A stretch of DNA of 64,000 nt from an uncultured Chloroflexia bacterium (GCA_963695575.1 CAVOGS010000014.1:328114-392113); one strand, 5' to 3'; counted from the first letter of the stretch, positions 31,712 to 57,310 are shown. Notes: generated by a model from the letters alone, not told the origin. Numbers and translations: made by a program.

Positions 31712-31712
31712 A

Positions 31713-34007: not shown

Positions 34008-34724
34008 ATGAGACTGATTTTATTTGACCTCGACGGAACCTTGCTGACGGCAGGCGGAATTGGACGGAGATCCACAAGGCATGCCCTGGAATCTGTGTTT
34101 GGCACTTCGGGAAATTTGGACGAGTTCTATCCGGGCGGAAGAACCCAGGAGGCGATCTTTTCAGATACCCTGGCAGATGCAGGTTTTGCAGAAAGTGAAT
34201 ACCTTGCAAAAAGGGATCAACTCTACCAGGTCTTTCTTGATAATTTTAAGAAAAATCTAGCTGAGGGTGATTTTCAGATCGATCAACTTCCTGGCGCAAG
34301 CAGGCTGATCGATTACCTGAGAGGAAATGAAGACTACGCCCTGGGACTGGTTACAGGCAATCATGAGGTTATAGCCAATTTAAAACTGCAAGCTGCAGGC
34401 TTGGATCCTGCTGCCTTTTTAGGGGGCGCTTATGGACATGAATCCGCTGACCGATCGGAGCTGGTTCCACTTGGAAAGAGCAGGGTTGAAGAAGTCAGCG
34501 GATTCCAATTTCCCGGTTATTACACGATCGTTATCGGCGACACAACCAGGGACGTACTAAGCGCCCGCTCCGTTGGTGCAACTTCTTTTGCTTTGACTTC
34601 GGGTACAGATAGCCGGGAAATGCTTCTCGGATCAGGACCAGATTCGGTATTTGATAACCTGGAAGAAGTTTTGGAACGCTTTACGTTCTTGGATGGAAGA
34701 ACAGGAGGTATTGATGGGATTTGA
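34008..34724 (+). CDS. HAD-superfamily hydrolase (phosphatase, PGP-like)
   Basis: MRLILFDLDGTLL motif I; VTGN and GDTTRD motifs. Confidence 0.8.
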   Translation: MRLILFDLDGTLLTAGGIGRRSTRHALESVFGTSGNLDEFYPGGRTQEAIFSDTLADAGFAESEYLAKRDQLYQVFLDNFKKNLAEGDFQIDQLPGASRLIDYLRGNEDYALGLVTGNHEVIANLKLQAAGLDPAAFLGGAYGHESADRSELVPLGKSRVEEVSGFQFPGYYTIVIGDTTRDVLSARSVGATSFALTSGTDSREMLLGSGPDSVFDNLEEVLERFTFLDGRTGGIDGI

Positions 34725-35887
34725 ACAAGTAGATCGCAGCGGAATAACAAAAATCGGCGTGGGGCTGCTGGGTTATGCCTTTATGGGAAAAGCTCACAGC
34801 AACGCATTCAGGAAACTGGATTATATGATGTATCCCCAGCCAGCAATCCCGGAACTGGTAGCAGTTTGTGGCAGGAATGAAGAAGCAGTCTCCGAAATGG
34901 CTTCCCGCTTTGGATATCAAGGTTATTACACCAATTGGGAAGAAATGCTGATGGATGATCGGATCCAGTTATTTGATAACGTCGGACCAAATAATGTGCA
35001 CGAAGAACCCTGCGTTATGGCTGCTGAACAGGGCAAACATGTCCTGTGTGAAAAGCCTTTGGCCCGCACCACTGAAGAATCCAAACGCATGTTAGACGCA
35101 GTCATAAAGAATAAAGTCAAACATATGGTTGCCTTTAACTACAGGTTTGTGCCTGCTGTGAGAAAGGCTCGTGATTTGATCACAAAGCGGGGCCCTGGGA
35201 AAGATCTATCATTTCCGGGCCATGTATTTGCAGGATTGGATTTTGCCCCATTTTAATACGCCGTATTTATGGAGGTATAATAAAGAGATATCCGGTACAG
35301 GGGCTCTGGGAGATTTTTCACACATCATCGACATCGGACACTTCTTGCTGGGATCCAGGATCAAAAGTGTTCAGTCCACATTAAAGAATTTCATTCCTGA
35401 GAGAAAACTGATGAATGGGAGCGGGTCTCGTGATGTGGATGTCGATGACGCTTTTGCATCGGTGATCGAATTCGAAAATGGCGCCTTGGGCACAGTAGAA
35501 GGGACAAGGTTGGCAAGTGGCAGAAAGAATTATCACGTGTTTGAAGTAAATGGAGAAAAAGGCTCGATCACCTGGAACCTGGAACGTTTAAATGAGCTTG
35601 AAATCCAATGGGCTGAAGGAGAGCCAGCTGAGAGCAGGGGATTCCAGAATGTGCTGGTGACAGAAGGTTCTGACCCCTGGATCAGCAATTGGTGGCCGCC
35701 TGGCCATATGATCGGTTGGGAACATACCTTCGTTCATGAGATCTACCATTTACTGGATTGCATCGTGAATGATAAAGAGGTTGGCACTGAAGGGGCTACC
35801 TTTGAGGATGGTTATAATGCCTGCGTGGTGGCTGACGCGATGGTCGAATCCTCTGAGACCGGCAAGCGAGTGGATTGTAGCTATTAA
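34714..35887 (+). pseudogene. Gfo/Idh/MocA-family oxidoreductase, one frameshift (paralogue of 56153..57310)
   Basis: IGVGLLGYAFMGKAHSNAF...HVLCEKPLA. At the A3 run 35184-35186 the reading switches to ...SGALGKIYHFRAMYLQDW... (ORF 35222..35887). ATG 34714 has a GGAGG RBS. Confidence 0.75.
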
Positions 35888-35961
35888 TGGAGATCCCCAG
35901 AAGTGAGTAAATTGCCAGGCTTTCTCTTACTGACAAAAGTCACATTCTGCAGCTTAACATC

Positions 35962-35994
35962 TTGACAATTAAAAACGATGACAATATGATTGTC
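35962..35994 (+). promoter_or_regulatory. Promoter TTGACA-17-TATGAT with inverted repeat GACAAT-atg-ATTGTC (candidate operator)
   Basis: -35 at 35962-35967 and -10 at 35985-35990. The palindrome at 35980-35994 overlaps the -10. It lies upstream of the second GntR gene. Confidence 0.55.
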
Positions 35995-36024
35995 TTAGTT
36001 GTAATTACAGGATAACAACATTAT

Positions 36025-36838
36025 ATGTCATCCCAATTGCCCAATCTATCAATAGATCGTAATTCTTTTATCCCTTTTTATATTCAGGTGATTGAATCGT
36101 TAACTGGATATATCGAAAATAATAATCTTTCGCCCGGTCATCAACTGCCCGGTGAGGCTGATTTGTGCAGTACTTTTGATGTCAGCCGGACTGTGATCCG
36201 TCAGGCGCTGCAGGAATTGGAATATAAAGGTTTGATATTTCCGTGAAAAAGGACGGGGAACATTTGTTGCTAAACCCAAGATCCACGAAGGACTTTTCCA
36301 GGAACTGACTGGATTTTATCAGGATATGGTGGCGAAGGGCCATCAACCGCGCTCCGATGTCCTGAAACAGGATAAGGTCAGGGCAAATCCGAAAGTGGCT
36401 GCGTATTTGAAATTGGAAACTGGCGCTCCTGTTACTCATATTGATAGGCTTCGATATGTAAATCACGAGCCAATTGTTTTGGTTACAACTTATTTACCAT
36501 ATGATATCTGCCCGGATTTATTAGAAGTAGATCTGACAAACCAATCTCTCTATGCTTATTTGGAGAATGAGCATGGTTTGTTCATCTCAAGTGGAAGGCG
36601 ATTTTTGGAAGCTGTGATTGCTAATCAAATGGAAGCAGAATTACTTCAGGTGGATATTGGTTCTCCATTGCTTTTATTAAATAGTGTTAGTTATTTGGAA
36701 GACGGCACACCAATGGAATATTTTCACGCTTTGCACCGGGGAGATCGTTCCCGGTTCGAGACGGAATTAGTAAGGGTCACTGAACCTGGCGATCTGGCAA
36801 AAAAGATCCTTGATGTAAATGGGTCCGGATTTGATTAG
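36025..36838 (+). pseudogene. GntR/HutC-family transcriptional regulator, one frameshift
   Basis: HTH in ORF 36025..36246 (PGEADLCSTFDVSRTVIRQALQELEYKGLI). After the T3 run 36238-36240 the +1 frame reads FREKGRGTFVAKPKI... and continues into the UTRA domain (ORF 36326..36838). Confidence 0.8.
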
Positions 36839-36897
36839 AACTAGAGATCTTCAAAGGGAACAAATTACATAAATTAAATAATTGAGGAGAGAAGCTA

Positions 36898-37768
36898 ATG
36901 AGCAAAATGAAAGTAGGTATCGATAGCTATTGTTTCCACCGTTATTTTGGCGAAGTCTATCCTCATCAGACAGCCCCTGATAAAACCATGACCATGGAGG
37001 ACTTTCTTGGCTTATGCCAAATACCTTGATGTGGATGGTGTATCCCTGGAGTCCTGCTTTTTTCCTTCCTTTGACAAAGGCTGGTTTAAAGAATTAAATA
37101 GTCAGCTGGATGATTACGGATTTGACCGGGTTTATGCCTGGGGACATCCGGATGGATTGGAAGCCGGGAAGAACCGCGACGAATTTGACAGCATGGTTGC
37201 TCAGATACCCAATGCTAAATTGATTGGCGCTGACGTGATGAGAGTGGTTGCCAGCAGCTTGATGTTCCGCTTCGAACCCCACGGTCCCCAGATCGATATT
37301 CTGGTGGATTGGTTCAAGGAGGCAGTCAAGGTCGCTGAAGATAATGGCGTCAAGCTGGCAGTTGAAAACCATATCGATTACACGGCTGATGAATGTGTAG
37401 AGCTATTGGAGAGGGTCGATTCTCCTTATCTGGGTTTGAACCTGGATACTGGTAACTTCCTGCGATTGCTGGATGATCCCGTCGAAGGAACAAAAAAATT
37501 GGCCAGCAGAGTGTTTGCTACCCATATAAAGGATCTTAAACCCGTGGCCGGCGTGGATGCCAGGGAGTGGTATTTCTTCTCCTCAACACCAGTAGGTGAT
37601 GGATTGGTTAATAACCAGAAGATCGCTCAATATCTCTATGATGCTGGTTATGAGGGTTTCCTGGCTGTAGAAACCGATTCCCTGCACCCGGACTATGCTG
37701 GTCAGGAATTTGACGCAATTGCAAAAAGTGTTGCTAACCTAAAACGAATAGCAGCCAGCGTTTATTAA
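36898..37768 (+). pseudogene. Xylose-isomerase-like TIM-barrel protein, one frameshift (paralogue of 55255..56118)
   Basis: ATG 36898 encodes MSKMKVGIDSYCFHRYFGEVYPHQTAPDKTMTMEDFL, which matches the N-terminus of the 55255 paralogue. The rest (AKYLDVDGVSLESCFF...) is ORF 37007..37768 in the +1 frame. Confidence 0.75.
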
Positions 37769-37903
37769 TTTATCGGGAACTTATTCTGGGCAGTAGATCA
37801 GAATGGGTGGTTTTAATTAAACCAGCCTTTCTGAAGAGGGATGTGACTGCTGCCCAGAATAAATATTTTATAAGTCGGGTAAAGTGGTTCGTGGAGTGGT
37901 ACT

Positions 37904-38758
37904 ATGAGATTTGGAGCAAATACTTTTATCTTTCGATCACCCTTTTCTACAGACAGAGATCTGGATCTGATACCCAAGTTGAAAGACATGGGATTTGATC
38001 TGATTGAGGTGGCTGTGGAAGATCCTGCACTGGTTGATACGGATTTATTGAAAACAGCTCTGGAAGAACATGATCTTGGGGTTGTGACCTGTGGAGCTTA
38101 TGGGCCTGGACGCAACATCAGCAGCCTGGATCCAGTTGAAAGGCAGGCGGCCAAGGATTATTTGATCTGGATGATCGATGCAGCTCAAAAATTGGGCTCA
38201 GATGTTGTTAATGGTCCAATGTACTCAGCAGTTGGTAAAGACCGCTTGGAAGATCCGGCTGATAGAGAGCAGGAATGGCAGTTCGCGGTTGAGGGATTGA
38301 GGGAAATGGCGGCTTATGCAGATAAGCGAGGTGTGAAACTGGCTTTTGAACCTCTGAACCGATTTGAAACTGACCTGGTTAATATTGTGGAGCAGGGTTT
38401 AAAACTGATTAATGATGTAGGTGCTCCAAACCTGGGATTCCACCTGGACACATTCCATATGCATTTGGAAGAAAAAGATTCGGCTGCAGCAATCCGTAAG
38501 GCGGGAGACCGGATCTTCCACTTCCACGCTTGTGAAAATGACAGAGGTGTGCCGGGAACAGGTCAGGTGAAATGGAAAGAAGTATTCGAAGCCCTAGTTG
38601 AAGTGGGCTATGATGGCAACGTTGTGATCGAATCATTTACCCCGGAAGTGAAATCGATTGCCAGGGCTGTTTGTATCTGGCGCGAGATCGCTCCTGATCA
38701 GGATTCGATTGCTCGGGATGGATTAAAATTCATAAAATCCTTTCCTGGAATAAACTAG
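37904..38758 (+). CDS. Ketose 3-epimerase family TIM-barrel protein (D-psicose/D-tagatose 3-epimerase-like)
   Basis: AFEPLNRFE ... HLDTFHMHLEE ... HFHACENDRGVPGTG ... VVIESF reproduces the E/D/H/E metal-ligand blocks I recall for ketose 3-epimerases. Confidence 0.65.
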   Translation: MRFGANTFIFRSPFSTDRDLDLIPKLKDMGFDLIEVAVEDPALVDTDLLKTALEEHDLGVVTCGAYGPGRNISSLDPVERQAAKDYLIWMIDAAQKLGSDVVNGPMYSAVGKDRLEDPADREQEWQFAVEGLREMAAYADKRGVKLAFEPLNRFETDLVNIVEQGLKLINDVGAPNLGFHLDTFHMHLEEKDSAAAIRKAGDRIFHFHACENDRGVPGTGQVKWKEVFEALVEVGYDGNVVIESFTPEVKSIARAVCIWREIAPDQDSIARDGLKFIKSFPGIN

Positions 38759-38786
38759 AAATCAGGGTAAATGGAGATTTTTGATT

Positions 38787-40358
38787 ATGGCAGAGGATAA
38801 GAAAAACAATAAAGTTCCCATGATGGAAGTAGTCAATATTAAAAAGGCTTTCCCGGGTGTGCAGGCCCTGGATGATGTCAGTGTGAAATTTTTCCCGGGA
38901 GAAGTGCATGCGGTTGTGGGTGAAAATGGAGCAGGGAAGTCAACATTGATGAAGATCATGGCTGGAGCGTATACACCTGATAAAGGCGAAATTTTTTTCC
39001 AAGGAGAAAAAGTCTCTTTCAACCATCCAGTTAAAGCTCAAGAAATGGGCATCAGTATTATCTATCAGGAATTTAACCTGCTGCCTGAGAGAACAGTGGC
39101 CCAAAATATTTATTTGGGCAGGGAACCATCCAAATATGGTGTGATTAACCTCCGCCAGCTAAACCAACAAACAGAAGACGTTTTAAAAGAACTTGGCGTC
39201 GAGAATATGATTTCTCCTACGTCCATGGTGAGTTCACTCTCGGTGGCGGAGCAGCAGCTGGTAGAAATTGCCAAAGCCATCTCTCTGAATGCTAAAGTGC
39301 TGATCATGGATGAACCCACAGCTTCCTTAACAAATACAGAAGTGAACTTGCTTTTCGATTTGATTTCCAAGCTAAAGGCCAAAGGGCTGGCTATCATCTT
39401 TATCTCTCACCGACTCTTTGAAGTTTTTAGTATAGCTGAAAAAATCACTGTATTAAAAGATGGCGCTCTCATTAATACAAAACCAATTGATCAGGTAAAT
39501 ACAGAAGACATTGTCTATATGATGGTTGGCAGGACTCTCGATCACTACTTCCCACCTCTGGGATTAGAGGAAGAGTTCGGAGATGTCGTTCTGAAAGTTG
39601 AAAATGGATCGAACGACATTTTGAAGGAAGTCAATTTGGAATTAAGAAAAGGAGAAGTGCTTGGTATTGCCGGCCTGCAGGGATCAGGCCGCACCGAATT
39701 GGCCCAAGCATTATTTGGTGTTGTCCCATTTAAAACAGGAAAAATTGAATTATTCGGGAAAGCAGTCGAGATTAACACCCCCAACCAAGCGATCAAGCGC
39801 AGAATGGGGTTTGTAACCGAGGACCGAAAATCTGAAGGCTTAGCCTTGATGCAGCCGATCCGGGATAATATGCTTTTAGCAATCAGATCTCTTCAGAACT
39901 TGTTGAGTTTTGTTCACCCAGACGGTGTAAGGACATCACGCAGCATGGTCCCTGAGCTGGGACAGCAAGTGGATGTCCGGGTGGATTCTTATGGCAAACA
40001 AGCCCAGGACCTCAGCGGTGGAAACCAGCAAAAAGTAGTGCTTTCCAAATGGCTGGCATCAGGCGCCGAGGTATTCCTTTTTGATGAACCAACTCGTGGT
40101 ATTGATGTTGAAGCCAAAGCCAGAATTCACGATATTATCCGTGGTCTCACTAAGTCAGGAGTGGCAGTACTAATGGTTTCTTCAGAGCTGCCAGAGATCA
40201 TTGGTATGAGCGACCGCATTCTGGTGATGCATGAAGGCACGATTGGTGGTGAACTCCCTCCCGAATCTAGTGAGGCGGACATTATGCTGGTAGCAACGGG
40301 TCAGCAGAGCGGAAATGGAAAAACCAAACCTGCTGCAAACGATGGAGGCACAAAATGA
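38787..40358 (+). CDS. Sugar ABC transporter ATP-binding protein, duplicated ABC domains (RbsA/MglA type)
   Basis: GENGAGKST, LSVAEQQLVEIAKA, LIMDEPTASL; second half LSGGNQQKVVLSKWL, FLFDEPTRGIDV. Confidence 0.9.
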   Translation: MAEDKKNNKVPMMEVVNIKKAFPGVQALDDVSVKFFPGEVHAVVGENGAGKSTLMKIMAGAYTPDKGEIFFQGEKVSFNHPVKAQEMGISIIYQEFNLLPERTVAQNIYLGREPSKYGVINLRQLNQQTEDVLKELGVENMISPTSMVSSLSVAEQQLVEIAKAISLNAKVLIMDEPTASLTNTEVNLLFDLISKLKAKGLAIIFISHRLFEVFSIAEKITVLKDGALINTKPIDQVNTEDIVYMMVGRTLDHYFPPLGLEEEFGDVVLKVENGSNDILKEVNLELRKGEVLGIAGLQGSGRTELAQALFGVVPFKTGKIELFGKAVEINTPNQAIKRRMGFVTEDRKSEGLALMQPIRDNMLLAIRSLQNLLSFVHPDGVRTSRSMVPELGQQVDVRVDSYGKQAQDLSGGNQQKVVLSKWLASGAEVFLFDEPTRGIDVEAKARIHDIIRGLTKSGVAVLMVSSELPEIIGMSDRILVMHEGTIGGELPPESSEADIMLVATGQQSGNGKTKPAANDGGTK

Positions 40359-41360
40359 GCGTAGAGGTAATTGCGGAAAGTAACGATAAGCGGGTACGAA
40401 GCAATTTATGGAAAAAGATTCCCCAGGTATATTATTTCCTGGTGATCGTTCTGGCTGGCGGATTACTCCTTGACCAGGTATTTGCGAATGGAAATATTCT
40501 TTCTAATCCAACCATCCTGCGAAATATTTTGGTCCGCTCAGTCGCTTTGGGAATCGTAGCTGTGGGACAGACGTTTGTAATGATCGGCGCTTCTATCGAT
40601 CTGTCAGTGGCATATACGATCAGTCTGACATCAGTGATGACTTCCTTGATGATGCAAGGGGATCCCGCCCGTGTACCGATGGCTATCGGAATGGTGCTTG
40701 CTGATGGGTGTCGTGGTGGGATTGATCAATGGCTTGATCATCACCAAATTGAATGTGAATGCTTTTATTGCCACGCTGGGTACCGGTTTGATCATTAAGG
40801 GAATTCTAAATGGAACTTTTTCTTCAGGCTCAATGGGGTCTGTCCCAAAAGGTTTTCAAACCCTCGGTTATGACAGTATAGGTCCAGTCCCATTTTCGAT
40901 CATCTTGCTGGCAGTGGTCGTGTTGATTGGTTGGTTTATATTATCCTGGACAAAATTCGGCTCGCATCTTTACGGCGTAGGCGGGGACTTACTTGTCGGC
41001 AGGCTGTCAGGTTTGAGGACATCGCGTGTGCTCATTATCGCCCACATCATTTCCAGCCTTACTGCCGTACTTGCCGGTCTGTTTATTGTCAGCAGGCTTG
41101 GCGCAGGAGCACCCTGGGTGGGTCCGGATGGCGTTTATGATTTGGAATCAGTTGCAACTACCGTAATTGGTGGAACGGCCCTCTCAGGAGGAAGGGGAGG
41201 TGTATTTGGCACCATCGCAGGTGTATTGATCTTTGGCGTGATCGATACTGTCTTCAATCAGTTAGGTGTGGATACGTACTTGAAGATGGTAATAAGAGGT
41301 GCAATTATTATTCTTGCAGTAGCCAGTTACTCCGTTCGCTCAAAACGCGAGGCGGCATAA
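40355..41360 (+). pseudogene. Sugar ABC permease (RbsC/AraH family), one frameshift
   Basis: ORFs 40355..40798 and 40671..41360 join near 40695 (...PMAIGMVL/LMGVVVGLINGLIITKLNVNAFIATLGTG...). Confidence 0.8.
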
Positions 41361-41372
41361 AGAGAGAAAATT

Positions 41373-42381
41373 ATGACTACATCTGTAAACAATCCTGCAG
41401 CCGAAAATGGTACTAAAATTTTTAAAAAAATCTGGGAGTGGATCAGGAAAATCCCACCAGTTTACCCAATCTTTATTGTGGTTGCTTTTGGTGTAAGCCG
41501 ATTGAATCCAAACTTCGCTACAGTGAATGGGATCATGGCCTTCATCAGGCGGGCGGCACCTTTGATCATCCTGGCAATGGGTCAATTATTTGTCCTGGCA
41601 TCAGGTGGTTTCGATCTGTCACAAGGGTCATTGGTCACTTTGACCATCATTGGTAGCTCATTAATTATCTACAACAATGAAGAGTTTACCTATATAGCAA
41701 TTGCGATCATGATCGGGTTTGGAATCGTGATTGGCCTGGTCAATGGATTTGTGGTTGCCTATCTGAAAGTACCCTCGTTAATTGCAACCCTTGGTATGCT
41801 GCTGCTGGTGAAAGGTGGTGGTTTATACTGGACAGGCGGGGCACCCAAGGGATATTTATCCGAAGCCTATCGTTTTATTGGGAGAGGGTATATTGAAAAT
41901 GTTCCGTTAATCGGTCGTTTCCCGATGTCGGGGATAGTCTTGATTGTGGTTGCAGCAATCTTGATCATCTTATTCCATAAAACCAATCTCGGAAAGCAAA
42001 TCCTCGCCATAGGTGACAACGCTCAAGCTGCCAAGCTATCAGGGGTAAAGGTGAAGCAAGTCAGGATGATTGCCTTTATGATTTCTGCAGTCTGCGCAAT
42101 TATTGGAGGCATCCTGCTTGGCGGTTATGGCGGTTCTTCTTATACCGCTGGAGAAGGTATGGAGATGTCAGTCAGTATCTGCGGCTGTGATCGGTGGTGT
42201 GTTATTGCTGGGCGGAAAAGGATCAGTGTATGATGTGGCTTTTGGTGCACTGACTCTGGAAGCCATGGTCAGTTTGTTGAATTTGCTGGGATTGCCAAAA
42301 CCATATCGCGATGCAGTTCAGGGTTTGATAATTATCGCAGCTGTTGCATATGCGGGGTTCCGTACTCGGAAACGTGATTAA
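41373..42381 (+). pseudogene. Sugar ABC permease (RbsC/AraH family), one frameshift
   Basis: ORFs 41373..42233 and 42103..42381 join near 42170 (...GEGMEM/QSVSAAVIGGVLLLGGKGSV...). Confidence 0.8.
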
Positions 42382-42492
42382 TCTGGTAACAATGCTAAAA
42401 CTGCACTGATAAAGGAGGTGATATCGCCCGAGATAAAACCGATTGGAAGTTAAAGCACTAACGTGAAAATCCTATCAAGGAGAAGAAAAAAA

Positions 42493-43810: not shown

Positions 43811-43824
43811 TTCATGGATACCTG

Positions 43825-43851
43825 GAGCCCGTCCGTTTTATGGGCGGGCTC
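43825..43851 (+). terminator. Hairpin immediately after the binding-protein gene (possible terminator/stabiliser)
   Basis: GAGCCCGTCC-gttttat-GGGCGGGCTC, a 10-bp stem with one G-U pair. No clear T tract follows. Confidence 0.45.
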
Positions 43852-43928
43852 AACTGCAGTTTGGAATATTGTTTTATTGATTGCGGGCAACTTTCATCGA
43901 TCATTTCATTAAAAGCCCTTAATCAACT

Positions 43929-43960
43929 GGGTAGGTTCGTTCAGCCGAACGAACCTACCC
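43929..43960. repeat. Perfect 14-bp inverted repeat with 4-nt loop in an intergenic region
   Basis: GGGTAGGTTCGTTC-agcc-GAACGAACCTACCC, read directly from the sequence. Confidence 0.9.
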
Positions 43961-44015
43961 ATAGAAAAGAAAGATAATGGAATGCAGCTGATAGCGCATT
44001 CAAGGAGACCGAATA

Positions 44016-44891: not shown

Positions 44892-44909
44892 TCAGGTAAG
44901 TTATACAAA

Positions 44910-44940: not shown

Positions 44941-45015
44941 TCACAAAAAAATTTTACCCCGGAACGTGTAATTACAGGATTATAAGGCAATAGATATACA
45001 GGGAGATTCTCCAAG

Positions 45016-46548: not shown

Positions 46549-46560
46549 GGAGTTTAATTG

Positions 46561-47592: not shown

Positions 47593-47600
47593 GAGATTTG

Positions 47601-48656: not shown

Positions 48657-48657
48657 G

Positions 48658-49587: not shown

Positions 49588-49599
49588 CAAGGAGACTAC

Positions 49600-50190
49600 A
49601 TGATGAAGACTGGACCATTCTCGTTTGACATTAAAGCCCCTGACTATATTCCTGGCGAATATGACAATCATATTAAACGGAATCTGAGTAATATGGCGGG
49701 TCAGTATGCAGATCAGGAGGCTTTTGATGCTTTGTTGGCTGAGAATGACCTTTTACTTTATGAGGTTTATGAGATCAAACGTCCTGAAATTGAAGGTGAG
49801 ATTCTGCATGGAATATCGATTGTGCATCCTGGAAAGGTCGGTAATGAGTTTTTTATGACCAAGGGGCACTTTCATACTGTCCTGGATACTGCAGAAATCT
49901 ATTACACGCTCAAGGGCCAGGGGTTAATGGTATTGGAAACACCTGAAGGAGATTGGGCAGTAGAAAAATTAGAGCCTGGAAGGGTCCTGTATGTTCCACC
50001 TCGCTGGGCTCACCGGTCTGTGAATATCCACGTTGAGGAAGATTTGGTGATGTTTTTCGCCTATCCAGGCCATGCCGGACATGATTACGGGACAATCGAG
50101 ACCCAGGGTTTTCGAAAACTTATCCTGGACGTGGATGGAAAACCGGAAATTGTTGATAATCCCCGCTGGGCACCTCCGGAGGGTAAATGA
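49600..50190 (+). CDS. pgiA: Cupin-type glucose-6-phosphate isomerase (archaeal-type cPGI)
   Basis: TKGHFHTVLDTAEIYY (GHxHx6E) and VPPRWAHRSVN (PPxxxHRxxN) are the two cPGI signature motifs; 196 aa. Confidence 0.75.
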   Translation: MMKTGPFSFDIKAPDYIPGEYDNHIKRNLSNMAGQYADQEAFDALLAENDLLLYEVYEIKRPEIEGEILHGISIVHPGKVGNEFFMTKGHFHTVLDTAEIYYTLKGQGLMVLETPEGDWAVEKLEPGRVLYVPPRWAHRSVNIHVEEDLVMFFAYPGHAGHDYGTIETQGFRKLILDVDGKPEIVDNPRWAPPEGK

Positions 50191-51239
50191 AGGCTCTTAA
50201 GGATTGTAAGATCCTTGTAACACCAACTTCTTTTGGATCACAAGATCTGGAATTAAAAACAGATCTTGAAGACCAGGTTGGAGAAGTGATTTATAACACG
50301 ACTGGAAAACCCCTCAGCTCAGAACAGCTTCAGGAGCTGTTAGTTGATATAGACGGGTATATTGCTGGACTGGACGAAATCGACGCCAGAGCCCTCGAAT
50401 CAGCGCCGGTGTTGAAGGTTGTGGCGCGATATGGCGTGGGGTATAACAACGTCGATCTGGCTGCAGCTGAAAAATTAGGAATTATTGTTACCAATACACC
50501 AGGGGCAAATGCGATCGCTGTTGCTGAGTTAACTGTTGGATTGATTCTAAATATGCTCAGGCCAATCCTTCCGGCGGTTCAAAGGACAAAATGCGGTGAA
50601 TGGCCCCGGTATAAAGGATTCTCGCTGGCAGGTAAAACAGTCGGCCTGCTAGGGCTGGGAGCTATAGGCAAAGAGGTTGCTAAACGGCTGGCGGGTTTTG
50701 ACTGCACGATCTTGGCTTACGATCTGTATCCCGATGAAAAATTCATGGCTGAGTATGGGATAAAGTTGGCTTTAATGGATGATATTTTGCCGGCAGCAGA
50801 TATCGTCTCTCTCCATTTGCCCGGCACTCCTGAAACCAGGGAGATCGTCAACGCAGAATTTATCAAAAAAATGAAATCAGGGGCCTGGCTGGTGAACACC
50901 GCCAGGGGTGATTTGATCAACGAGGCCGCCTTGTTGAATGCTCTTGAAGAAGGTAAATTGCGGGGAGCCGCTCTGGATGTATATCCAGAAGAACCGCCTG
51001 CTAAAGATAATCCATTGTTGCGCCTGGAGCAAGTGATCACAACACCTCATATGGGCGCCCATGCTGATTCCGCCACAAATTTGATGGGCAGCATGTCCCT
51101 GGAAGAATGTCTCAGGGTATCTGCAGGGAAAAAAACCAAAACATCAAGTAAGGCAAGGATAAGTAATGAAAGAAAAGAAAAATATCTTAAAGAAGATCCA
51201 GGAACTGGGAATCCTGGCAGTGATCAGAGGCCCATCTGA
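50187..51239 (+). CDS. D-isomer-specific 2-hydroxyacid dehydrogenase (PGDH-like); the 3' end is probably artefactually extended
   Basis: GKTVGLLGLGAIGKEVAKRL...NTARGDLINEAAL...GAALDVYPEEP...TPHMGA. The tail overlaps eda by 74 nt. Either 1-nt change at the A7 run (51129-51135) gives an earlier stop; for example, removing one A gives a stop at 51160-51162. Confidence 0.75.
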   Translation: MKALKDCKILVTPTSFGSQDLELKTDLEDQVGEVIYNTTGKPLSSEQLQELLVDIDGYIAGLDEIDARALESAPVLKVVARYGVGYNNVDLAAAEKLGIIVTNTPGANAIAVAELTVGLILNMLRPILPAVQRTKCGEWPRYKGFSLAGKTVGLLGLGAIGKEVAKRLAGFDCTILAYDLYPDEKFMAEYGIKLALMDDILPAADIVSLHLPGTPETREIVNAEFIKKMKSGAWLVNTARGDLINEAALLNALEEGKLRGAALDVYPEEPPAKDNPLLRLEQVITTPHMGAHADSATNLMGSMSLEECLRVSAGKKTKTSSKARISNERKEKYLKEDPGTGNPGSDQRPI

Positions 51240-51816
51240 AGAGCTTACTTTGAAAATGGTCGCCGCTCTTGTTGAAGGTGGTGTGACAGGGATCGAAATT
51301 ACCTTTACAACACCAAATGCGCTGCAAGTTGTCAGCGCACTGGACAAGGAATTTGGAGATAAGATCGTTTTGGGGATGGGAACATTGACGAAACCCAAAC
51401 AGGCAGAGGCTGCAAAAAAGGCTGGCGCAAAATTCCTGGTGAGTCCGCATACTTCTAAGAAACTTGCCAAGGCGATGGTAGCGACAGGATTGCCAACGAT
51501 GATGGGCGCGTTAACTCCATCAGAGGTGATGAAGGCCAGGGCTTATGGAAGTGATGTGGTTAAGATATTCCCAGGATCGCTAGGCGGGCCAGCTTATATG
51601 AAATCACTCAAAGGCCCATTTCCTGAGATCCCCATGATGCCCACAGGAGGTGTCTCGGACCAGAATCTCGGAGAGTGGTTTGCTGCAGGAGCGTTTGCCG
51701 TTGGTGCTGGCAGCAATCTATGTCCCAAATCGATGGCCCTGGCAGGAGATTTTGAGGGGATTACAAAAATCGCCCGAATTTATATGACTGCTATTAAAAC
51801 CGCCCGAAGTAAATAA
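51166..51816 (+). CDS. eda: 2-dehydro-3-deoxyphosphogluconate / 4-hydroxy-2-oxoglutarate aldolase
   Basis: GILAVIRGPSEE...EGGVTGIEITFTTPNA...VKIFPG...PTGGV is typical Eda. Confidence 0.85.
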   Translation: MKEKKNILKKIQELGILAVIRGPSEELTLKMVAALVEGGVTGIEITFTTPNALQVVSALDKEFGDKIVLGMGTLTKPKQAEAAKKAGAKFLVSPHTSKKLAKAMVATGLPTMMGALTPSEVMKARAYGSDVVKIFPGSLGGPAYMKSLKGPFPEIPMMPTGGVSDQNLGEWFAAGAFAVGAGSNLCPKSMALAGDFEGITKIARIYMTAIKTARSK

Positions 51817-51829
51817 TAACGAGGAATAT

Positions 51830-52777
51830 ATGGATTTCGACATCATCAAAAAAAATAAACCAACCTTTTATTTTATTGGGGTCACAACCGGTAAATCTTC
51901 GATCAACAAAGTCTTTCCGTTATGGATGGATGTTATGGGAAAACCAGAAGTGGTTCTGGAAGGTATCGATCATCCGCTTCACGATCACCCTGAGAAATAT
52001 AGAGCATCAGTCGCCCAGATCAAATATGATCCTCTTTCCTTGGGCGCCCTGGTCACATCCCACAAGATGAATGTTTATTCAGCAGCAAGTGATATGTTTG
52101 ATTATTTTGATCATTATGCCCAAACGACTGCGGAATTATCATCTATCAGCAAAATGGACGGCCAACTTCGAGGTCATGCCAAGGATCCAATCACTGCCGG
52201 TTTGAGCCTGGAAGCGATAATCGATCCGGGTTATTTTGGAGATACAAAGGGGCATGTATTTTGCCTTGGGGCTGGAGGATCAGCGGTAGCTACATTGTTG
52301 TATCTAATTAATAAAAAAGACCCAGGCGACAGGCCGGAAAAATTCATTGCAGTGAACAGATCTCCCGGGAAATTGGATCACATGCGTGAAATGGTCTCAA
52401 AATATGATACCGACATTGAGGTTGAATACATCCATAATAACGATCCACAAGTTAATGACCAGATTATGGCTTCCCTGCCCGATCACAGCATCGTGATCAA
52501 TGCGACAGGCATGGGCAAGGATACGCCGGGCTCTCCAATAACAAATATGGGAGTATTCCCAAAGGATGGCATAGCCTGGGAATTCAATTACCGCGGTGAA
52601 CTGGATTTTATGCACCAGGCATTAAAACAGGTTGATAGCAGGAATCTTCGAGTAGAAGATGGTTGGATCTATTTCCTTCATGGTTGGTCTCAAGTGATTG
52701 CGGAAGTATTACATATTGATCTAACGCCTGAATTGTTCAAGGAATTAGATGCAGCTGCAAGTGCTGTGCGTGGGTAA
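51830..52777 (+). CDS. Shikimate/quinate dehydrogenase-like protein
   Basis: GALVTSHKMNV..., MDGQLRGHAKDPITAG..., CLGAGGSAVATLLYL and INATGMG resemble the AroE-family blocks. The call is tentative. Confidence 0.5.
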   Translation: MDFDIIKKNKPTFYFIGVTTGKSSINKVFPLWMDVMGKPEVVLEGIDHPLHDHPEKYRASVAQIKYDPLSLGALVTSHKMNVYSAASDMFDYFDHYAQTTAELSSISKMDGQLRGHAKDPITAGLSLEAIIDPGYFGDTKGHVFCLGAGGSAVATLLYLINKKDPGDRPEKFIAVNRSPGKLDHMREMVSKYDTDIEVEYIHNNDPQVNDQIMASLPDHSIVINATGMGKDTPGSPITNMGVFPKDGIAWEFNYRGELDFMHQALKQVDSRNLRVEDGWIYFLHGWSQVIAEVLHIDLTPELFKELDAAASAVRG

Positions 52778-52799
52778 AAACTTTCTATAGGAGGCAGGT

Positions 52800-54125
52800 A
52801 TGTTAGCGCAGGTAGTACCTCTTTATTTCAGAGAAGGCAGGGATGAGGATTTTGATAAGCAGCTCAGTCTTCTGAAAGACCTTCTGGTTAATGATGTGGA
52901 ATTTTTACCAGAAGTTGCTCTTGGTGATCCTATTCCCAAAGCTGATGCTGTTTTATTTCCCCAGATTTTAGGGGAAGCTTACCGCCAGCTGGATGATTTT
53001 AAGGCAATTGATATACCCATTCTGATCATTACTACAGAATTTGGCACAATGGCCATGTGGGACTGGGAAATCATCAAGTATCTGCGTATGAAGGGCGTGG
53101 ATGTTATCGCACCATATAATATGGCTCAGACCAGAAATCTGGCCCGGTCTCTGGCTGTTAAGAAAGAGCTCAAATCGTCTAAATTCCTTGTCTACCAGGA
53201 CAATCCGGGAGAGGGTTTCCAACCGGAGATCTTCAAACGTTTCTTCTGGTGGGAGGAAGAATGCACTCAGCTGATGATGGAAAAATACGGTCTTTCCCTG
53301 GAAAAAAGAAGCTTCAAAGAGATGGCTGCTGAAGCAAAAGAGATCACAAACGAAGCAGTGTTGAAGGTATGGGATGACTGGAAAGACAAGTTACCTCTGG
53401 ATGGGCTTAATGACAATCAACGGAACAGCGCCTTGAAGGTCTACCTTAAATTGAAAGAGGCCCTGGATGCCGACGATAAGATCAAGGCGGTAGGCATCAA
53501 TTGTTTGAACGAGAGCGAATATTCTGATACTACACCATGTCTTGCCTGGAATATGCTCTACGAAGAAAGGAAACTGATCTGGGGTTGTGAAGCTGATACA
53601 GTGGTTATGTTAAGTAAATATCTGCTGAATAAATCCCTGGACTGCCCGATCATGATGACCAATATGTATCCCTTCCTGATGGGTGATGCAGCATTAAAAC
53701 ATGAACGAATACCTTATTTCCCTGAGGTGAATGGCAACCCTGATAATTATATTCTGGCTGCTCACTGCGGCTATTTTGGTGTTGTGCCCCAGTCATTTGC
53801 AACAGACTGGTCTGTGAAGTCAAAAGTGCTGGCCATTGTGGATCAGAACGCCATTGCTCTTGATGCCCGTATGCCGGAAGGCGCGATGACGCTGGCGAAG
53901 CTCAATCCGGACCTGGAAACCATCTCCGTTGTAGAAGGGGAGATTGAAAAATATATCCAGTACCAGGATTCTGATTGCTTAAACGGCGCTGTGATCAGGG
54001 TGAGCGACGGACATAAATTAGTCAGTTCATTAACTTCTCACCATTATCTGATCCTGACTGGACACAGATTGGCTGATATTCGTCAGATCGCACAGGTTTT
54101 TGGCTGGCAAGTTGAATCATTTTAG
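52800..54125 (+). CDS. L-fucose/L-arabinose-isomerase-like family protein (uncharacterised subgroup)
   Basis: 441 aa; ...GINCLNE...TPCLAWNML...IWGCEADT...AHCGYFG.... The GCEAD block is reminiscent of the FucI/AraA superfamily. The call is tentative. Confidence 0.4.
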   Translation: MLAQVVPLYFREGRDEDFDKQLSLLKDLLVNDVEFLPEVALGDPIPKADAVLFPQILGEAYRQLDDFKAIDIPILIITTEFGTMAMWDWEIIKYLRMKGVDVIAPYNMAQTRNLARSLAVKKELKSSKFLVYQDNPGEGFQPEIFKRFFWWEEECTQLMMEKYGLSLEKRSFKEMAAEAKEITNEAVLKVWDDWKDKLPLDGLNDNQRNSALKVYLKLKEALDADDKIKAVGINCLNESEYSDTTPCLAWNMLYEERKLIWGCEADTVVMLSKYLLNKSLDCPIMMTNMYPFLMGDAALKHERIPYFPEVNGNPDNYILAAHCGYFGVVPQSFATDWSVKSKVLAIVDQNAIALDARMPEGAMTLAKLNPDLETISVVEGEIEKYIQYQDSDCLNGAVIRVSDGHKLVSSLTSHHYLILTGHRLADIRQIAQVFGWQVESF

Positions 54126-54134
54126 GGAGCATTG

Positions 54135-55184
54135 ATGCCTGAGGAATACAATTCTATTGAACGAACGTTTAGGACACTAAAATTCCAGCCTGTTGACCGG
54201 GTTCCTGTCGATCTGCATAATTTTATGTTGACCCCTAAATTTCTGGGTGCAGCAGATTTTGCTGATTTTTACCGGGATGGCGCAGCTATGGCAGAAGGCC
54301 AGATCAAAGCCTGGCAGAGGTTCGGCCATGATGTGCTGCTGGTTGAAAATGGCACTGCTGCCCTGGCTGAAGCATGCGGTGTTCAGGTCCTGTATCAGGA
54401 GGATTCGGCGCCGGTAGCCAGCCAACCGGCAATATCCAGCCTGGACGAGGTTGATCGACTTGTTATTCCGGATCCGTATAAAGATCCGTTGTTAAGTGAA
54501 AATCTAAAATCAACCAGGCTGGTAGTGGAAGAAATTGGCGATCAGGCATTTGTGATCGGACGTGGAGATCAGGGACCGTTCAGCCTGGCCTGCGAGATCC
54601 GGGGAATGAGTGAGTTTTTGATGGATCTGGCGCTGGGTGAGGAACTGGATAAAGTGCACCAGCTGCTGGAATTCTGCCTGGATGTTTCAGAGCGCTACTG
54701 CCTGGCCCAGATCGAGCAAGGAGCCCACGCTACATCCATCGGTGATTCACCATCTGGACCAGATGTGATCTCTCCTGCTTATTATCGGGAATTTGCCTAC
54801 CCTTATGTAGAAAAATTGTTCCGCAGGTTAAAGAGACGAGATATCATCGTGGCCTATCACATCTGCGGCAATGCCACACCGATCATTGATGATATGGTTC
54901 GATCTGGAGCGGATATCATTGAGGTTGACCAGAAATCTGACCAGATCTCAGTGAAAGAAGCAGCTGCTGGCAAAACAACCCTTCTTGGACCGGTTGATCC
55001 CAGTGAAGTGATGGCAAATGGCACACCGCAGCTGGTGCAAGAAAAATGTGTGGAAGCGTTAAGAAATATGTCCCCTGGAGGAGGTTTTATCCTGGGTCCG
55101 GGCTGTGCTCTACCTCCAACTACACCGGACGAGAATATTGATGCGATGATAGAAACAGCAAAGAAGTATCAGTTAGAATATTAA
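54135..55184 (+). CDS. Uroporphyrinogen-decarboxylase (URO-D/MtaA-like) family protein
   Basis: RTFRTLKFQPVDRVPVDLHNF...; 350 aa; TIM-barrel URO-D pattern; ...HICGN...IIEVDQ.... Confidence 0.6.
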   Translation: MPEEYNSIERTFRTLKFQPVDRVPVDLHNFMLTPKFLGAADFADFYRDGAAMAEGQIKAWQRFGHDVLLVENGTAALAEACGVQVLYQEDSAPVASQPAISSLDEVDRLVIPDPYKDPLLSENLKSTRLVVEEIGDQAFVIGRGDQGPFSLACEIRGMSEFLMDLALGEELDKVHQLLEFCLDVSERYCLAQIEQGAHATSIGDSPSGPDVISPAYYREFAYPYVEKLFRRLKRRDIIVAYHICGNATPIIDDMVRSGADIIEVDQKSDQISVKEAAAGKTTLLGPVDPSEVMANGTPQLVQEKCVEALRNMSPGGGFILGPGCALPPTTPDENIDAMIETAKKYQLEY

Positions 55185-55254
55185 TCAAGACCTGTAAACA
55201 ACAGCAAGTAAAATTAATTTGAATCTATTTTCAATCTAGAGAAAGGAGTACAAC

Positions 55255-56118
55255 ATGACGTTAAAAGTAGGTATCGATAATTATAGTTACCATCGTTTTT
55301 TCGGCGAGGTCTATCCCCAGCAGGTGGCACCAGAAAAGAATATGACAACGGATGATTTCCTGAGCCGGGCGAAGGAATTTGGTGTGGATGGTGTATCTCT
55401 CGAGTCATGTTTTATTCAGAGCTTTGAGGATGATTATCTGAGTGAGTTAAAAACGAAATTAGATAATTATGGGTTCGATCGTGTCTGGGCCTGGGGGCAT
55501 CCTGACGGATTAGAAGGTGGAAAGAACGAACCAATGCTGGATGACATGATCAAACATATCTCATATGCAAAAAAGATCGGTGCACCGGTCATGCGGACTG
55601 TGGGCAGCAGTCTGGCATTCCGATTCGAGGATCATGAACCCCAGTTGAAAAAACTCACCGAAATGTTCAAAGAAGCTGTCAAAGTGGCCGAGGAATTGGA
55701 TGTAAAGCTGGCTGTTGAGAATCACTTTGATTTTGATTCTGATGAGTTTCTGCGATTATTTGACGACGTCTCCTCTGATTACTTTGGCCTGACCTTCGAT
55801 ACGGGTAACTTCATGCGTTTGCTGGATGAACCTGTAAAAGCGATGGAAAAACTGGGCAAATATGTGTTTGCTACTCATATCAAGGACATTAAGATCACTC
55901 CAGGAGTGGCAGCTGATGAATGGTTCTTCTTCTCGTCAGTGGCAGTGGGTGATGGATATATCAATATGCCGGAACTGGCAAAAATGCTTGTAAATCTGGA
56001 ATATAAGGGTCTTCTAGCTGTTGAACTGGATTTCCCGCATCCGGATGTTGGAACTAACGAAGATGCGGCAGTAAAGAAGAGCGTCAAATATCTTCAAGAT
56101 CTTGTAGCTGGAATATAG
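55255..56118 (+). CDS. Xylose-isomerase-like TIM-barrel protein (paralogue of 36898..37768)
   Basis: MTLKVGIDNYSYHRFFGEVYPQQVAPEKNMTTDDFL...LAVENH...FDTGNF...ATHIKD...LAVELD. Colinear with the 36898 copy along its whole length. Confidence 0.75.
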   Translation: MTLKVGIDNYSYHRFFGEVYPQQVAPEKNMTTDDFLSRAKEFGVDGVSLESCFIQSFEDDYLSELKTKLDNYGFDRVWAWGHPDGLEGGKNEPMLDDMIKHISYAKKIGAPVMRTVGSSLAFRFEDHEPQLKKLTEMFKEAVKVAEELDVKLAVENHFDFDSDEFLRLFDDVSSDYFGLTFDTGNFMRLLDEPVKAMEKLGKYVFATHIKDIKITPGVAADEWFFFSSVAVGDGYINMPELAKMLVNLEYKGLLAVELDFPHPDVGTNEDAAVKKSVKYLQDLVAGI

Positions 56119-56152
56119 AAGATAATAACAATCATAAAAGGATGGATGACCT

Positions 56153-57310
56153 ATGAAAGAGATGAACGTAGCTATCATTGGTTCCAAATTTATGGGCAAA
56201 GCCCATTCCAATGCCTGGAAGAATGTAACCAATTTCTTTGATGTTCCTATCAAGCCGGTCTTAAAAGTCGCCTGCGCCACGAATAAGGAAGCGCTGCAGG
56301 CCTTTGCGGATAATTGGGGTTGGGAAGAAATCGAAACCGATTGGAAGAAAGTTGTGGAACGGGAAGATATAGATATCATTGATATCTGTGTACCCCCCAA
56401 TTTGCACGCGCCGATCGCCATTGCGGCTGCAAAAGCAGGGAAACACATCTTCTGTGAAAAACCGATCTCCCTGACCTCTGGGGAAGCAAAAGAAATGTTC
56501 GATGCTGCGGAAAAAGCAGGTGTGGTCCATTACGTCAATCACAACTACCGCCGCTGCCCGGCAGTTATGCTCGCCAAGCAGATGATAGATGACGGAAAAT
56601 TGGGGCAGATCTACCATTGGCGGGGATGTTACTTGCAGTCCTGGACCATGGATCCAAATTTCCCGCTTACCTGGCATATGAAGAAGGATATCGCGGGAAT
56701 GGGGTCTAATGGCGGTATCAATTCCCATAGTGTTGACCTGGCCCGTTTCCTGGTTGGCGAAATCAAATCCGTCACCGGAATGATGAAAACATTCATCAAA
56801 GAGAGACCTTTGCCCGGAGCAGGCGCAGCTACTTTCAGCGCTGGCAGTGGTGAGGTTACAGAAATGGGGAAGGTAGAGCTCGAAGATGCAATTTCAATGA
56901 TCGTCGAATTTGAAAATGGAGCTCTGGGTTCATTTGACGCCACTACATTTGCGATAGGAAGGTTAAATTACAATTACTTTGAGATCTATGGATCCAAAGG
57001 AGCTGTGCTCTGGAATTTAGAGAGAATGAATGAGCTGCAGTATTACTCTTCAGAAGACGCAGATGGCGAGAAGGGGTTCCGCACCATATCAGCGACCGAT
57101 GCCAGCCATCCCTATATGGCAAATTGGTGGCCGCCAGCGCATAATATTGGATATGAACATGAGTTCCATCACGCCGTGGTCGATTTCTTAAAAGGCATTG
57201 ACTCTGGAGCGGGCGTAAAACCTGATTTTTATGATGGATACCTGGACATGAAAGTCCTGGAAGCCGGAATCGAGTCAGCTGAAAAGAAGAAACAGATCGA
57301 TCTGGATTAA
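56153..57310 (+). CDS. Gfo/Idh/MocA-family oxidoreductase (paralogue of 34714..35887)
   Basis: VAIIGSKFMGKAHSNAW...HIFCEKPIS...NWWPPAHNIGYEHEF. It shares the unusual NWWPP-H-IG-EH block with the 34714 copy. Confidence 0.8.
   Translation: MKEMNVAIIGSKFMGKAHSNAWKNVTNFFDVPIKPVLKVACATNKEALQAFADNWGWEEIETDWKKVVEREDIDIIDICVPPNLHAPIAIAAAKAGKHIFCEKPISLTSGEAKEMFDAAEKAGVVHYVNHNYRRCPAVMLAKQMIDDGKLGQIYHWRGCYLQSWTMDPNFPLTWHMKKDIAGMGSNGGINSHSVDLARFLVGEIKSVTGMMKTFIKERPLPGAGAATFSAGSGEVTEMGKVELEDAISMIVEFENGALGSFDATTFAIGRLNYNYFEIYGSKGAVLWNLERMNELQYYSSEDADGEKGFRTISATDASHPYMANWWPPAHNIGYEHEFHHAVVDFLKGIDSGAGVKPDFYDGYLDMKVLEAGIESAEKKKQIDLD

Follow-up and report, generated by a model that had tools for sequence, protein, structure and literature searches.

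Conserved pairing of a TIM-barrel protein and a Gfo/Idh/MocA dehydrogenase in a sugar-utilisation supercluster of an Anaerolineales genome, with a probable role in 3-keto-sugar chemistry

Here we present an analysis of a 64,000-nucleotide (nt) stretch of DNA from an uncultured Chloroflexia bacterium (GCA_963695575.1, CAVOGS010000014.1:328114-392113), hereafter the window, in which two genes for TIM-barrel proteins, TIM_A and TIM_B, and two for dehydrogenases of the Gfo/Idh/MocA superfamily, GFO_A and GFO_B, lie in one sugar locus. Pairs of such dehydrogenases and TIM barrels underlie several routes that pass through 3-keto sugars, including those for levoglucosan and for C- and O-glycosides, as well as the alternative glycosidase pathway of Bacteroides. 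Calling of open reading frames (ORFs) delimited a ~30-kb run of plus-strand genes (28169-58267), and the genes between 28 and 58 kb, all in the same orientation, make up a single sugar-utilisation supercluster of an Anaerolineales metagenome-assembled genome (MAG). A preliminary description, made from the sequence of the window, had located all four genes and assigned their families correctly; three more TIM barrels and a third Gfo/Idh/MocA gene, which it had placed around an ABC importer, were also recovered, and the importer is of the CUT2 type (Table 1). Our preferred reading, held with modest confidence, is that TIM_B or TIM_A acts together with GFO_B to process a sugar through a 3-keto intermediate, and that the breaks found in several genes of the locus are errors of the assembly.

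TIM_A and TIM_B are paralogues, and the earlier estimate, made by eye, that roughly half of their positions are identical was sound: the identity is 57.2% over 285 residues (E 3.5e-117), or 57.1% (164/287) in a global alignment. TIM_B has 4010 homologues at E<=1e-20, and among the 120 matches listed the source names are all forms of "sugar phosphate isomerase/epimerase". When 37 members of the family from many phyla were aligned, the residues E155-N156-H157, D182, H208 and E257 were found to be invariant, and a motif specific to the family was evident at positions 79-86 (AWGHPDGL, within WAWGHPDGL). TIM_A, a deep branch of this family, keeps the E-N-H, D, H and E residues. For TIM_B, whose AlphaFold model has a pLDDT of 96, solved structures are distant; the closest two, 3tva and then the isomerase Art22, share 17-20% identity with it. 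The nearest solved relative, 3tva, is a TIM barrel of Planctomyces limnophilus from structural genomics with no assigned function; it was matched by the TIM_B family profile with an E of 1e-16 and by Foldseek with 1.7e-14, at 17% identity to TIM_B. A literature search on Art22 returned only unrelated papers.

The residues that follow the first metal ligand separate these barrels. In an alignment of the five TIM proteins of the window with LgdB1, LgdB2 and LgdB3 from lgd loci and with E. coli YcjR, the motif is E-N-H in TIM_A and TIM_B, E-P-H in TIM4, E-M-H in TIM1 and LgdB2, E-x-H in LgdB3 and in a further copy elsewhere in the genome (on C3, see below), H-P-H in LgdB1, and E-P-L-N-R in TIM3 and YcjR. 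The His of this motif is essential in AtOGE, where H134A is inactive, and is the proposed base in PuCGE (PMC10628242). These enzymes and AtHYD are, together with DgpA/DgpB-C, systems in which metal-dependent TIM barrels act on C3-oxidised sugars, and the metal ligands and base His of AtOGE (8bvk), AtHYD (8ro4) and PuCGE (7exz), the latter two residues past the first ligand, are positionally conserved in TIM_A and TIM_B. Both proteins thus have the four metal ligands and the His by which the 3-keto-sugar eliminase/hydratase class is defined, and because they carry E-N-H and not E-P-L-N-R, they appear to belong to the eliminase/hydratase/dehydratase class rather than to the epimerases. TIM3 and YcjR have the longer motif of YcjR-type and ketose 3-epimerases, E-P-L-N-R-(F/Y)-E with its paired catalytic Glu, and TIM_A and TIM_B lack it. 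Within the class, no close relative was found. The family profile of TIM_B matches PuCGE with 2.8e-5 and AtOGE with 2e-3, both distant. Taking LgdB1 as the ~275-residue sequence cluster with the H-P-H motif, TIM_A and TIM_B form a separate family, as their matches to it reach no better than ~1e-7 (3e-7 to 0.05), at 20-30% identity over partial lengths. By these comparisons, TIM_A and TIM_B lie outside every characterised family.

The two dehydrogenases are also paralogues, as had been described, with 37-42% identity by tblastn (E 4e-73) and 42.3% (157/371) in a global alignment. Because the identities are only 57% and 42% for the two kinds of protein, the copies cannot be an assembly duplication, a possibility that the preliminary description had raised. 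Both dehydrogenases have the PF01408 and PF02894 domains and keep the EKP motif and the catalytic His of the superfamily; in GFO_A the EKP motif is accompanied by the block WWPPGHMIGWEH. The shared sequences FMGKAHSNA and NWWPPxHxIGxEH are indeed in both, and calling the latter distinctive was an overstatement, as WWPPGHxIG(Y/W)EH is what proteins of the superfamily generally carry. For both proteins the best NCBIfam model is NF052479, the LgdA equivalog, and both fall well below its curated whole-protein cut-off of 650 bits, GFO_B scoring 407 bits and GFO_A 316 (its two pieces 154 and 163). In the PDB, GFO_B matches 4h3v, a Kribbella flavida oxidoreductase from structural genomics with no assigned function, at 3e-108, and LGDH (6a3f) at 4.5e-102; its match to DgpA (7xr9) reaches only 1.2e-20.

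To place the two proteins we collected 20 authentic lgd loci with the 6a3f sequence and built a maximum-likelihood tree of 83 sequences, in which LgdC was resolved as the outgroup. True LgdA proteins of three phyla, Actinomycetota, Bacillota and Pseudomonadota, share 66% or more of their residues with 6a3f; the identity of GFO_B to true LgdA is 43-46%. Five groups were separated, with support of 95-100: LgdC, the GFO_A type, a type represented by a third genomic copy (C3:76824-78002), LgdA, and the GFO_B type with 4h3v. The GFO_A type and the C3 copy form one clade (support 100/96), and true LgdA, 4h3v and the GFO_B type form a second (support 95/87), in which the GFO_B type is sister to the LgdA clade; neither GFO_A nor GFO_B falls inside the latter. 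A loop specific to that clade, LWPIPALGIGYGETK, is missing from GFO_A, GFO_B, the C3 type and 4h3v, all of which carry the WWPPGHxIG(Y/W)EH sequence. By this placement, GFO_A and GFO_B are ancient paralogues of different subfamilies, neither being an LgdA orthologue. The idea of a duplicated module of dehydrogenase and TIM barrel within the locus thus has to be given up, since GFO_A groups with the third genomic copy and not with GFO_B.

The arrangement of TIM_B and GFO_B is not confined to this locus: it marks a conserved cluster that occurs in at least six phyla. Counting as GFO_B type any protein at least 50% identical to GFO_B, TIM_B was followed by such a gene in 34 of the 37 loci with enough flanking sequence, and these came from Chloroflexota, Spirochaetota, Acidobacteriota, Planctomycetota, Bacteroidota and Bacillota. 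We take this adjacency to indicate that TIM_B and GFO_B work as one functional unit, conserved across many phyla. A 441-residue protein is encoded between the two genes in Planctomycetota and in several further lineages. Its counterpart in the window gave no Pfam, NCBIfam or PDB sequence match, either as a single sequence or as a profile. Its AlphaFold model (pLDDT 91) was matched by Foldseek to L-arabinose isomerase (4f2d, E 1e-17, TM 0.70) and less strongly to L-fucose isomerase, and its invariant residues include E264, E302, H322, H414 and H415; we refer to it as the AraA-fold protein. Neighbours that recur across the phyla are an FGGY kinase, an IolG-like Gfo/Idh/MocA protein, a Zn-ADH, an SDH-like protein and a cupin GPI, to which the Anaerolineales loci add a PTE-type lactonase, a 2-hydroxyacid dehydrogenase, Eda and a URO-D/MtaA-like protein. 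Homologues of the CUT2 importer flank the TIM_B-GFO_B pair in six of the loci, from several phyla.

Among the loci compared, the URO-D/MtaA-like protein is restricted to those of Anaerolineales and to one other, L084. The latter belongs to a minimal locus (L084/L085, 1-5175) that consists of genes for LacI, the URO-D-like protein, a 139-residue cupin-like protein, the ABC importer, the TIM barrel and the GFO protein, with an RACo gene just 5' on the opposite strand. RACo genes encode corrinoid reductive activators, and from this neighbour one may suspect that a methylated sugar is demethylated by the URO-D/MtaA-like protein, which would then be a corrinoid-dependent O-demethylase.

The organisation of the A genes differs from that of the TIM_B-GFO_B pair. 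TIM_A lies 3' of its own GntR regulator and 5' of TIM3 and the importer, and GFO_A, of the other subfamily, is separated from it by the regulator gene. In four relatives the order is GntR, TIM_A, a ROK regulator, a GFO_B-type gene (65% identical to GFO_B), TIM3 and the ABC importer, and in a fifth the GFO_B-type gene is directly 3' of TIM_A. In the window and its closest relatives there is only a 135-nt gap at this position. The duplicated pair of TIM and GFO_B-type genes is thus present in the relatives and not in the window, where TIM_A is left without its dehydrogenase: TIM_A appears to be an old paralogue or an acquired copy whose own GFO_B-type partner was lost in this genome. The 411-residue product encoded between TIM_A and the GFO_B-type gene in the relatives was considered as an analogue of the AraA-fold protein and rejected, as it is the ROK regulator.

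Next to the A genes lies TIM1, which is 53-55% identical (E 1e-125 to 1e-133) to a 323-residue TIM barrel beside LgdC in three Bacillus-type lgd loci; we call this protein LgdB2 because of its length and its place in those loci, and not by comparison with the B. smithii sequence. The matches of TIM1 in the PDB are 2zds (2e-26) and 8ro4, a 2-hydroxy-3-keto-glucal hydratase (2e-9). We had considered TIM1 as an LgdB2-type partner of GFO_A, and this was downgraded after its context had been compared in 80 Chloroflexota loci. A block of genes for GntR, PfkB, a split transketolase, the DRL/SAF dehydrogenase and TIM1 (28169-34001 in the window) is kept in most of the 80 and in a few loci of Spirochaetota, most TIM1 loci lack both GFO_A and TIM_A, and in more than 50 Chloroflexota loci TIM1 ends the PfkB-transketolase-DRL/SAF operon with no lgd genes present. 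As the terminal gene of a Chloroflexota-wide operon, TIM1 is thus no dedicated partner of GFO_A. The HAD gene follows TIM1 in relatives too, with or without GFO_A. As far as we could find, there is no characterised example of a hydratase-type TIM barrel that feeds a kinase and transketolase route.

The preliminary description had treated GFO_A and TIM_A as single genes, with no mention of frameshifts, and neither is open as given: their lengths of 1174 and 871 nt are not divisible by three, and ORF calling splits GFO_A into 34651..35256 and 35222..35887 and TIM_A into a short 5' piece and 37007..37768, the latter carrying the Pfam match. In all, seven genes within 31.7-43.8 kb are each broken into two overlapping ORFs. 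As a reference we used a genome of the same genus, G005, which is collinear with the window over 27175-59118 at 92% nt identity. Relative to it the window has eight single extra bases, exactly at the split points (Table 1), and a ninth shift lies in the mutarotase, the two pieces of which share one frame in a relative. When each of the eight mapped bases is passed over, the gene concerned reads through as a single ORF of normal length. Orthologues of GFO_A are intact (394-433 residues open) in five genomes of the same genus, and one of these proteins is 99% identical. G005 has its own, different single-base insertions, in genes of cluster B (that is, of the TIM_B-GFO_B part of the supercluster) that are intact in the window, and other MFD MAG loci are similarly fragmented, which fits long-read data.

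Table 1. Genes of the supercluster, with positions in the 64-kb window and, for broken genes, the inserted base and the length of the product when that base is skipped.
Feature	Position	Strand	Assignment	Inserted base	Read-through length
DRL/SAF dehydrogenase				32728	429 aa
TIM1	33039..34001	+	PF01261 TIM barrel, 320 aa, LgdB2-like		
HAD-family hydrolase	34008..34724	+	PF00702, PF13419		
GFO_A	34714..35887	+	LGDH-superfamily Gfo/Idh/MocA; PF01408, PF02894, PF22725	35181	390 aa
GntR/UTRA regulator	36025..36838	+	Pfam UTRA	36241	270 aa
TIM_A	36898..37768	+	TIM_B-family barrel; PF01261	37009	289 aa
TIM3	37904..38758	+	ketose 3-epimerase-like TIM barrel, E-P-L-N-R-F-E motif		
CUT2-type ABC importer: ATPase, two permeases, Peripla_BP_4 lipoprotein binding protein	38781..43810	+	ORFs, PF13407		
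Permease 1				40697	334 aa
Permease 2				42170	335 aa
Binding protein	42493..43810	+	split ORF	42808	448 aa
TIM4	44016..44891	+	PF01261 barrel		
FGGY kinase, IolG-like Gfo/Idh/MocA protein (46558), Zn-ADH, PTE-like lactonase, cupin GPI, D-2-hydroxyacid dehydrogenase, Eda aldolase, SDH-like protein	45016..52777	+	Pfam, NCBIfam	51119 (D-2-hydroxyacid dehydrogenase)	324 aa (D-2-hydroxyacid dehydrogenase)
AraA/FucI-fold protein	52800..54125	+	441 aa; no Pfam family		
URO-D/MtaA-like protein	54132..55184	+	PF01208; TIGR01463 190 bits vs cut-off 235		
TIM_B	55255..56118	+	PF01261		
GFO_B	56153..57310	+	LGDH-like Gfo/Idh/MocA, starts 35 nt 3' of TIM_B; PF01408, PF02894, PF22725		
Mutarotase, TTE1925 family	57379..58267	+	split near 57655; NF052227 matches on both pieces		

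We are highly confident that these breaks arose as consensus errors in the assembly, and that the genes concerned are not pseudogenes. The other explanation, that module A is a redundant copy in decay and that true mutations have inactivated GFO_A, TIM_A, the regulator and the transporter, could draw on the crowding of seven broken genes inside 10 kb and on a TIM_A that, unlike that of other genomes, is already without its GFO_B-type partner. We hold it to be very unlikely: each break is one inserted base, its removal restores normal length with no further stops, and the protein encoded by GFO_A is 99% identical to an intact orthologue. Because two more single-base shifts fall in cluster B genes (51119 and ~57655) and the sister assembly has insertions of its own in genes intact here, the pattern is that of assembly error and not of selection. 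Programmed frameshifting and a common error motif at the insertions were considered and rejected, as the sequence contexts share nothing. Nine insertions in a stretch of ~25 kb correspond to about one per 3 kb, and apparent pseudogenes elsewhere in the genome therefore need to be re-checked; those in long-read MAGs of this kind are not to be taken at face value.

Given these genes, the most likely chemistry would be NAD-dependent oxidation at C3 followed by metal-dependent enolate chemistry, that is, elimination or hydration. In the scheme we propose, an imported neutral, monosaccharide-like compound (an anhydrosugar, a small glycoside or an unusual hexose) would be oxidised by GFO_B, probably at C3, and the keto sugar would be bound on the metal of TIM_A or TIM_B, held by E155, D182, H208 and E257. 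H157 would serve as the base that takes the acidic alpha proton, and the resulting enediolate could undergo beta-elimination, ring opening, or hydration/dehydration. The AraA-fold isomerase, the FGGY kinase and the cupin isomerase would bring the product into central metabolism, while the other dehydrogenases might re-reduce or epimerise intermediates. We consider 3-keto-sugar chemistry probable for the TIM_B-GFO_B pair. Elimination specifically is a tentative assignment that may well prove wrong, and levoglucosan itself is a very improbable substrate. Systems of this general kind are known; what is uncharacterised here is the specific families, their AraA-fold companion and the pathway itself.

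Several observations weigh against this reading or against parts of it. GFO_B and its Anaerolineales orthologues have Gly or Ser in place of the Asp of the D-x-x-x-H dyad (Gly in GFO_B, NGGINSH), which most GFO_B-type proteins of other phyla retain, and because this Asp is missing, catalysis by the Anaerolineales orthologues may differ. Foldseek ranks epimerases, the isomerase Art22 and the hydratase AtHYD about equally for TIM_B, and the C-glycoside enzymes score near the epimerases and AtHYD. Dehydratases (AsbF and IolE-type matches) have the E-x-H motif as well, so it is necessary and not sufficient for the class and does not discriminate elimination of a glycosidic or anhydro oxygen from plain dehydration. 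C3 as the likely position of oxidation is taken from homology to LGDH alone. Lastly, the AraA-like, FGGY and cupin enzymes would be superfluous if the product were plain glucose, as it is in the levoglucosan pathway.

The main rival is a redox epimerisation of the kind encoded by E. coli ycjQRS (D-guloside 3-dehydrogenase, 3-dehydro-D-guloside 4-epimerase and D-glucoside 3-dehydrogenase), in which the Zn-ADH or a GFO protein would oxidise a rare sugar or glycoside at C3, a TIM barrel would epimerise a neighbouring carbon through an enediolate, and a second dehydrogenase would reduce the result to a common sugar, no bond being cleaved. The E. coli genes are a precedent: they too combine a Zn-ADH, a PF01261 TIM barrel and a Gfo protein next to an ABC importer. 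The cluster has a Zn-ADH, several Gfo proteins and TIM barrels, with no dehydratase or glycosidase and with a mutarotase at the end of the operon. TIM3 is 27% identical to YcjR, shares E-P-L-N-R with it, and scores 191 bits against the D-psicose 3-epimerase model NF051856 (cut-off 300). However, this likeness concerns TIM3, the best match of YcjR, and not TIM_A or TIM_B, whose E-N-H is that of the eliminase/hydratase/dehydratase class; YcjQ, YcjR and YcjS reach no more than 25-33% identity with proteins of the window; and the phosphorylases YcjM and YcjT of the E. coli cluster are not present in the locus. We regard epimerisation as an unlikely account of the TIM_B-GFO_B pair.

A lesser rival is a cyclitol pathway, for an inositol isomer or an O-methyl-inositol, in which the Gfo proteins would be inositol dehydrogenases and TIM_A and TIM_B inosose dehydratases or isomerases like IolE or IolI. 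IolG and IolE belong to the same superfamilies, the third Gfo scores 256 bits on IolG, the Zn-ADH 178 bits on the scyllo-inosose 3-dehydrogenase IolM, and GFO_B matches the scyllo-inositol dehydrogenase 5ya8 at 1e-49; IolE is, weakly, the top NCBIfam match for several of the TIM barrels, and the URO-D/MtaA-like gene, with the RACo activator near L084, could serve O-demethylation. The scores of the four proteins in question nonetheless stay far under the equivalog cut-offs, with 118 bits for GFO_B and 68 and 37 for the pieces of GFO_A on IolG (TIGR04380, 355 bits), and 45 for TIM_B and 41 for TIM_A on IolE (TIGR04379, 290 bits). They are thus outside the iol orthologue groups, and a placement inside these is what the preliminary description had named as fatal to its proposal. 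None of the families assigned corresponds to IolD, IolB or IolA, the remaining iol genes being missing from the locus, and an AraA-fold aldose-ketose isomerase and an FGGY kinase are ill-suited to a cyclitol. This explanation we consider decidedly improbable.

The comparison that had been drawn with levoglucosan, C-glycoside and inositol systems holds in part: LGDH is the best NCBIfam model for both dehydrogenases and the (E/H)-x-H motif is shared, and none of the four proteins is orthologous to LgdA, LgdB1, DgpA/B/C or IolG/E. Like the locus studied here, the levoglucosan systems of Pseudarthrobacter phenanthrenivorans (6a3f), Bacillus smithii S-2701M (PMC7676230) and Paenarthrobacter (PMC10066097), with LgdA, LgdB1, LgdB2 and LgdC, combine a Gfo protein, PF01261 TIM barrels (LgdB1, LgdB2 and LgdB3 having the motif), an ABC importer and a HAD protein. 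LgdB1 is in the neighbourhood of 253 of 265 LgdA homologues (PMC10066097), and LgdB1 sequences from lgd loci gave no tblastn match at E<=1e-8 anywhere in the genome. That the window holds a true levoglucosan locus, with GFO_A or GFO_B as LgdA, TIM_A or TIM_B in place of LgdB1, TIM1 as LgdB2 and another Gfo protein in place of LgdC, is the least probable of the explanations: the LGDH matches of both dehydrogenases, the 54% identity of TIM1 to the gene at the LgdB2 position in Bacillus and the HAD gene and importer, as in B. smithii, are outweighed by a tight LgdA clade of three phyla that excludes both proteins, the missing LgdA loop, the want of an LgdB1 or LgdC orthologue in the genome, the place of TIM1 in a different and widely conserved transketolase operon, and the additional AraA-fold, FGGY and cupin enzymes, which point to a product other than glucose.

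The glycoside eliminase systems differ from the locus in other respects. No close kinship to DgpA or to the TIM subunit of the C-glycoside enzymes (CGE) was found, the small second CGE subunit not having been searched for. The Agrobacterium system of AtOGE and AtHYD uses a flavoenzyme oxidase and not a Gfo protein as in the window, and, unlike glycoside eliminase systems, the locus has no glycoside-type (CUT1) transporter and no aglycone-related gene. Literature searches for gene clusters acting on anhydro-alditols or 3-keto-glycosides returned nothing that matches it.

Beyond the preferred 3-keto-sugar reading, one may speculate that the TIM_B family, the GFO_B clade and the AraA-fold protein are the core of an undescribed and widespread catabolic route for an overlooked, abundant neutral sugar derivative. 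TIM_B would then represent a new family of 3-keto-sugar beta-eliminases or ring-opening lyases, and it would yield an aldose to be isomerised and then phosphorylated by the FGGY kinase and not by glucokinase; substrates could be, for example, mannosan or galactosan (non-glucose anhydrosugars), a small glycoside with an alkyl or methyl group, or a 1,5-anhydro-alditol. We think the proposal, in this full form, rather unlikely to be correct. The phyla in which TIM_B and GFO_B adjoin consist mostly of uncultured bacteria, and the identity of the substrate would assign a function to thousands of genes (more than 4,000 TIM_B homologues) and reveal a carbon source common to Anaerolineales, Planctomycetota, Spirochaetota and Acidobacteriota.

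Other pairs of the same kind were encountered. The third LGDH-superfamily gene of the genome adjoins that of a 323-residue LgdB3-like TIM barrel (C3:76824-79002), which is 34% identical to the Paenarthrobacter-type LgdB3. In three relatives such a pair of C3-type Gfo and LgdB3-like TIM genes lies directly 3' of cluster B, and in another locus it stands beside genes for DeoC and an FGGY kinase. Proteobacterial deep-branching relatives of TIM_B (35-47% identical) also adjoin a Gfo/Idh/MocA gene, as in Halomonas heilongjiangensis (L047, 3000-15500), where genes for three FAD_binding_2 (KstD-like) flavoproteins, an SDR and a TctC receptor lie nearby; this neighbourhood was considered as a clue to the substrate and dropped, the KstD-like flavoproteins indicating nothing about it.

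A promoter-like sequence, TTGACA-17-TATGAT, is found at 35962-35990, 5' of the GntR/UTRA regulator gene; scans for promoters and terminators gave counts no higher than expected from shuffled sequence. A PDB search with the binding protein of the importer matched only generic CUT2 proteins of the ribose/xylose type, with no hint of the ligand. The same protein has a lipoprotein signal peptide and, after it, a long linker of acidic repeats (42463-42700; EEVMEEEVAEEV...), which we take to be a tether between the lipid anchor and the binding domain.

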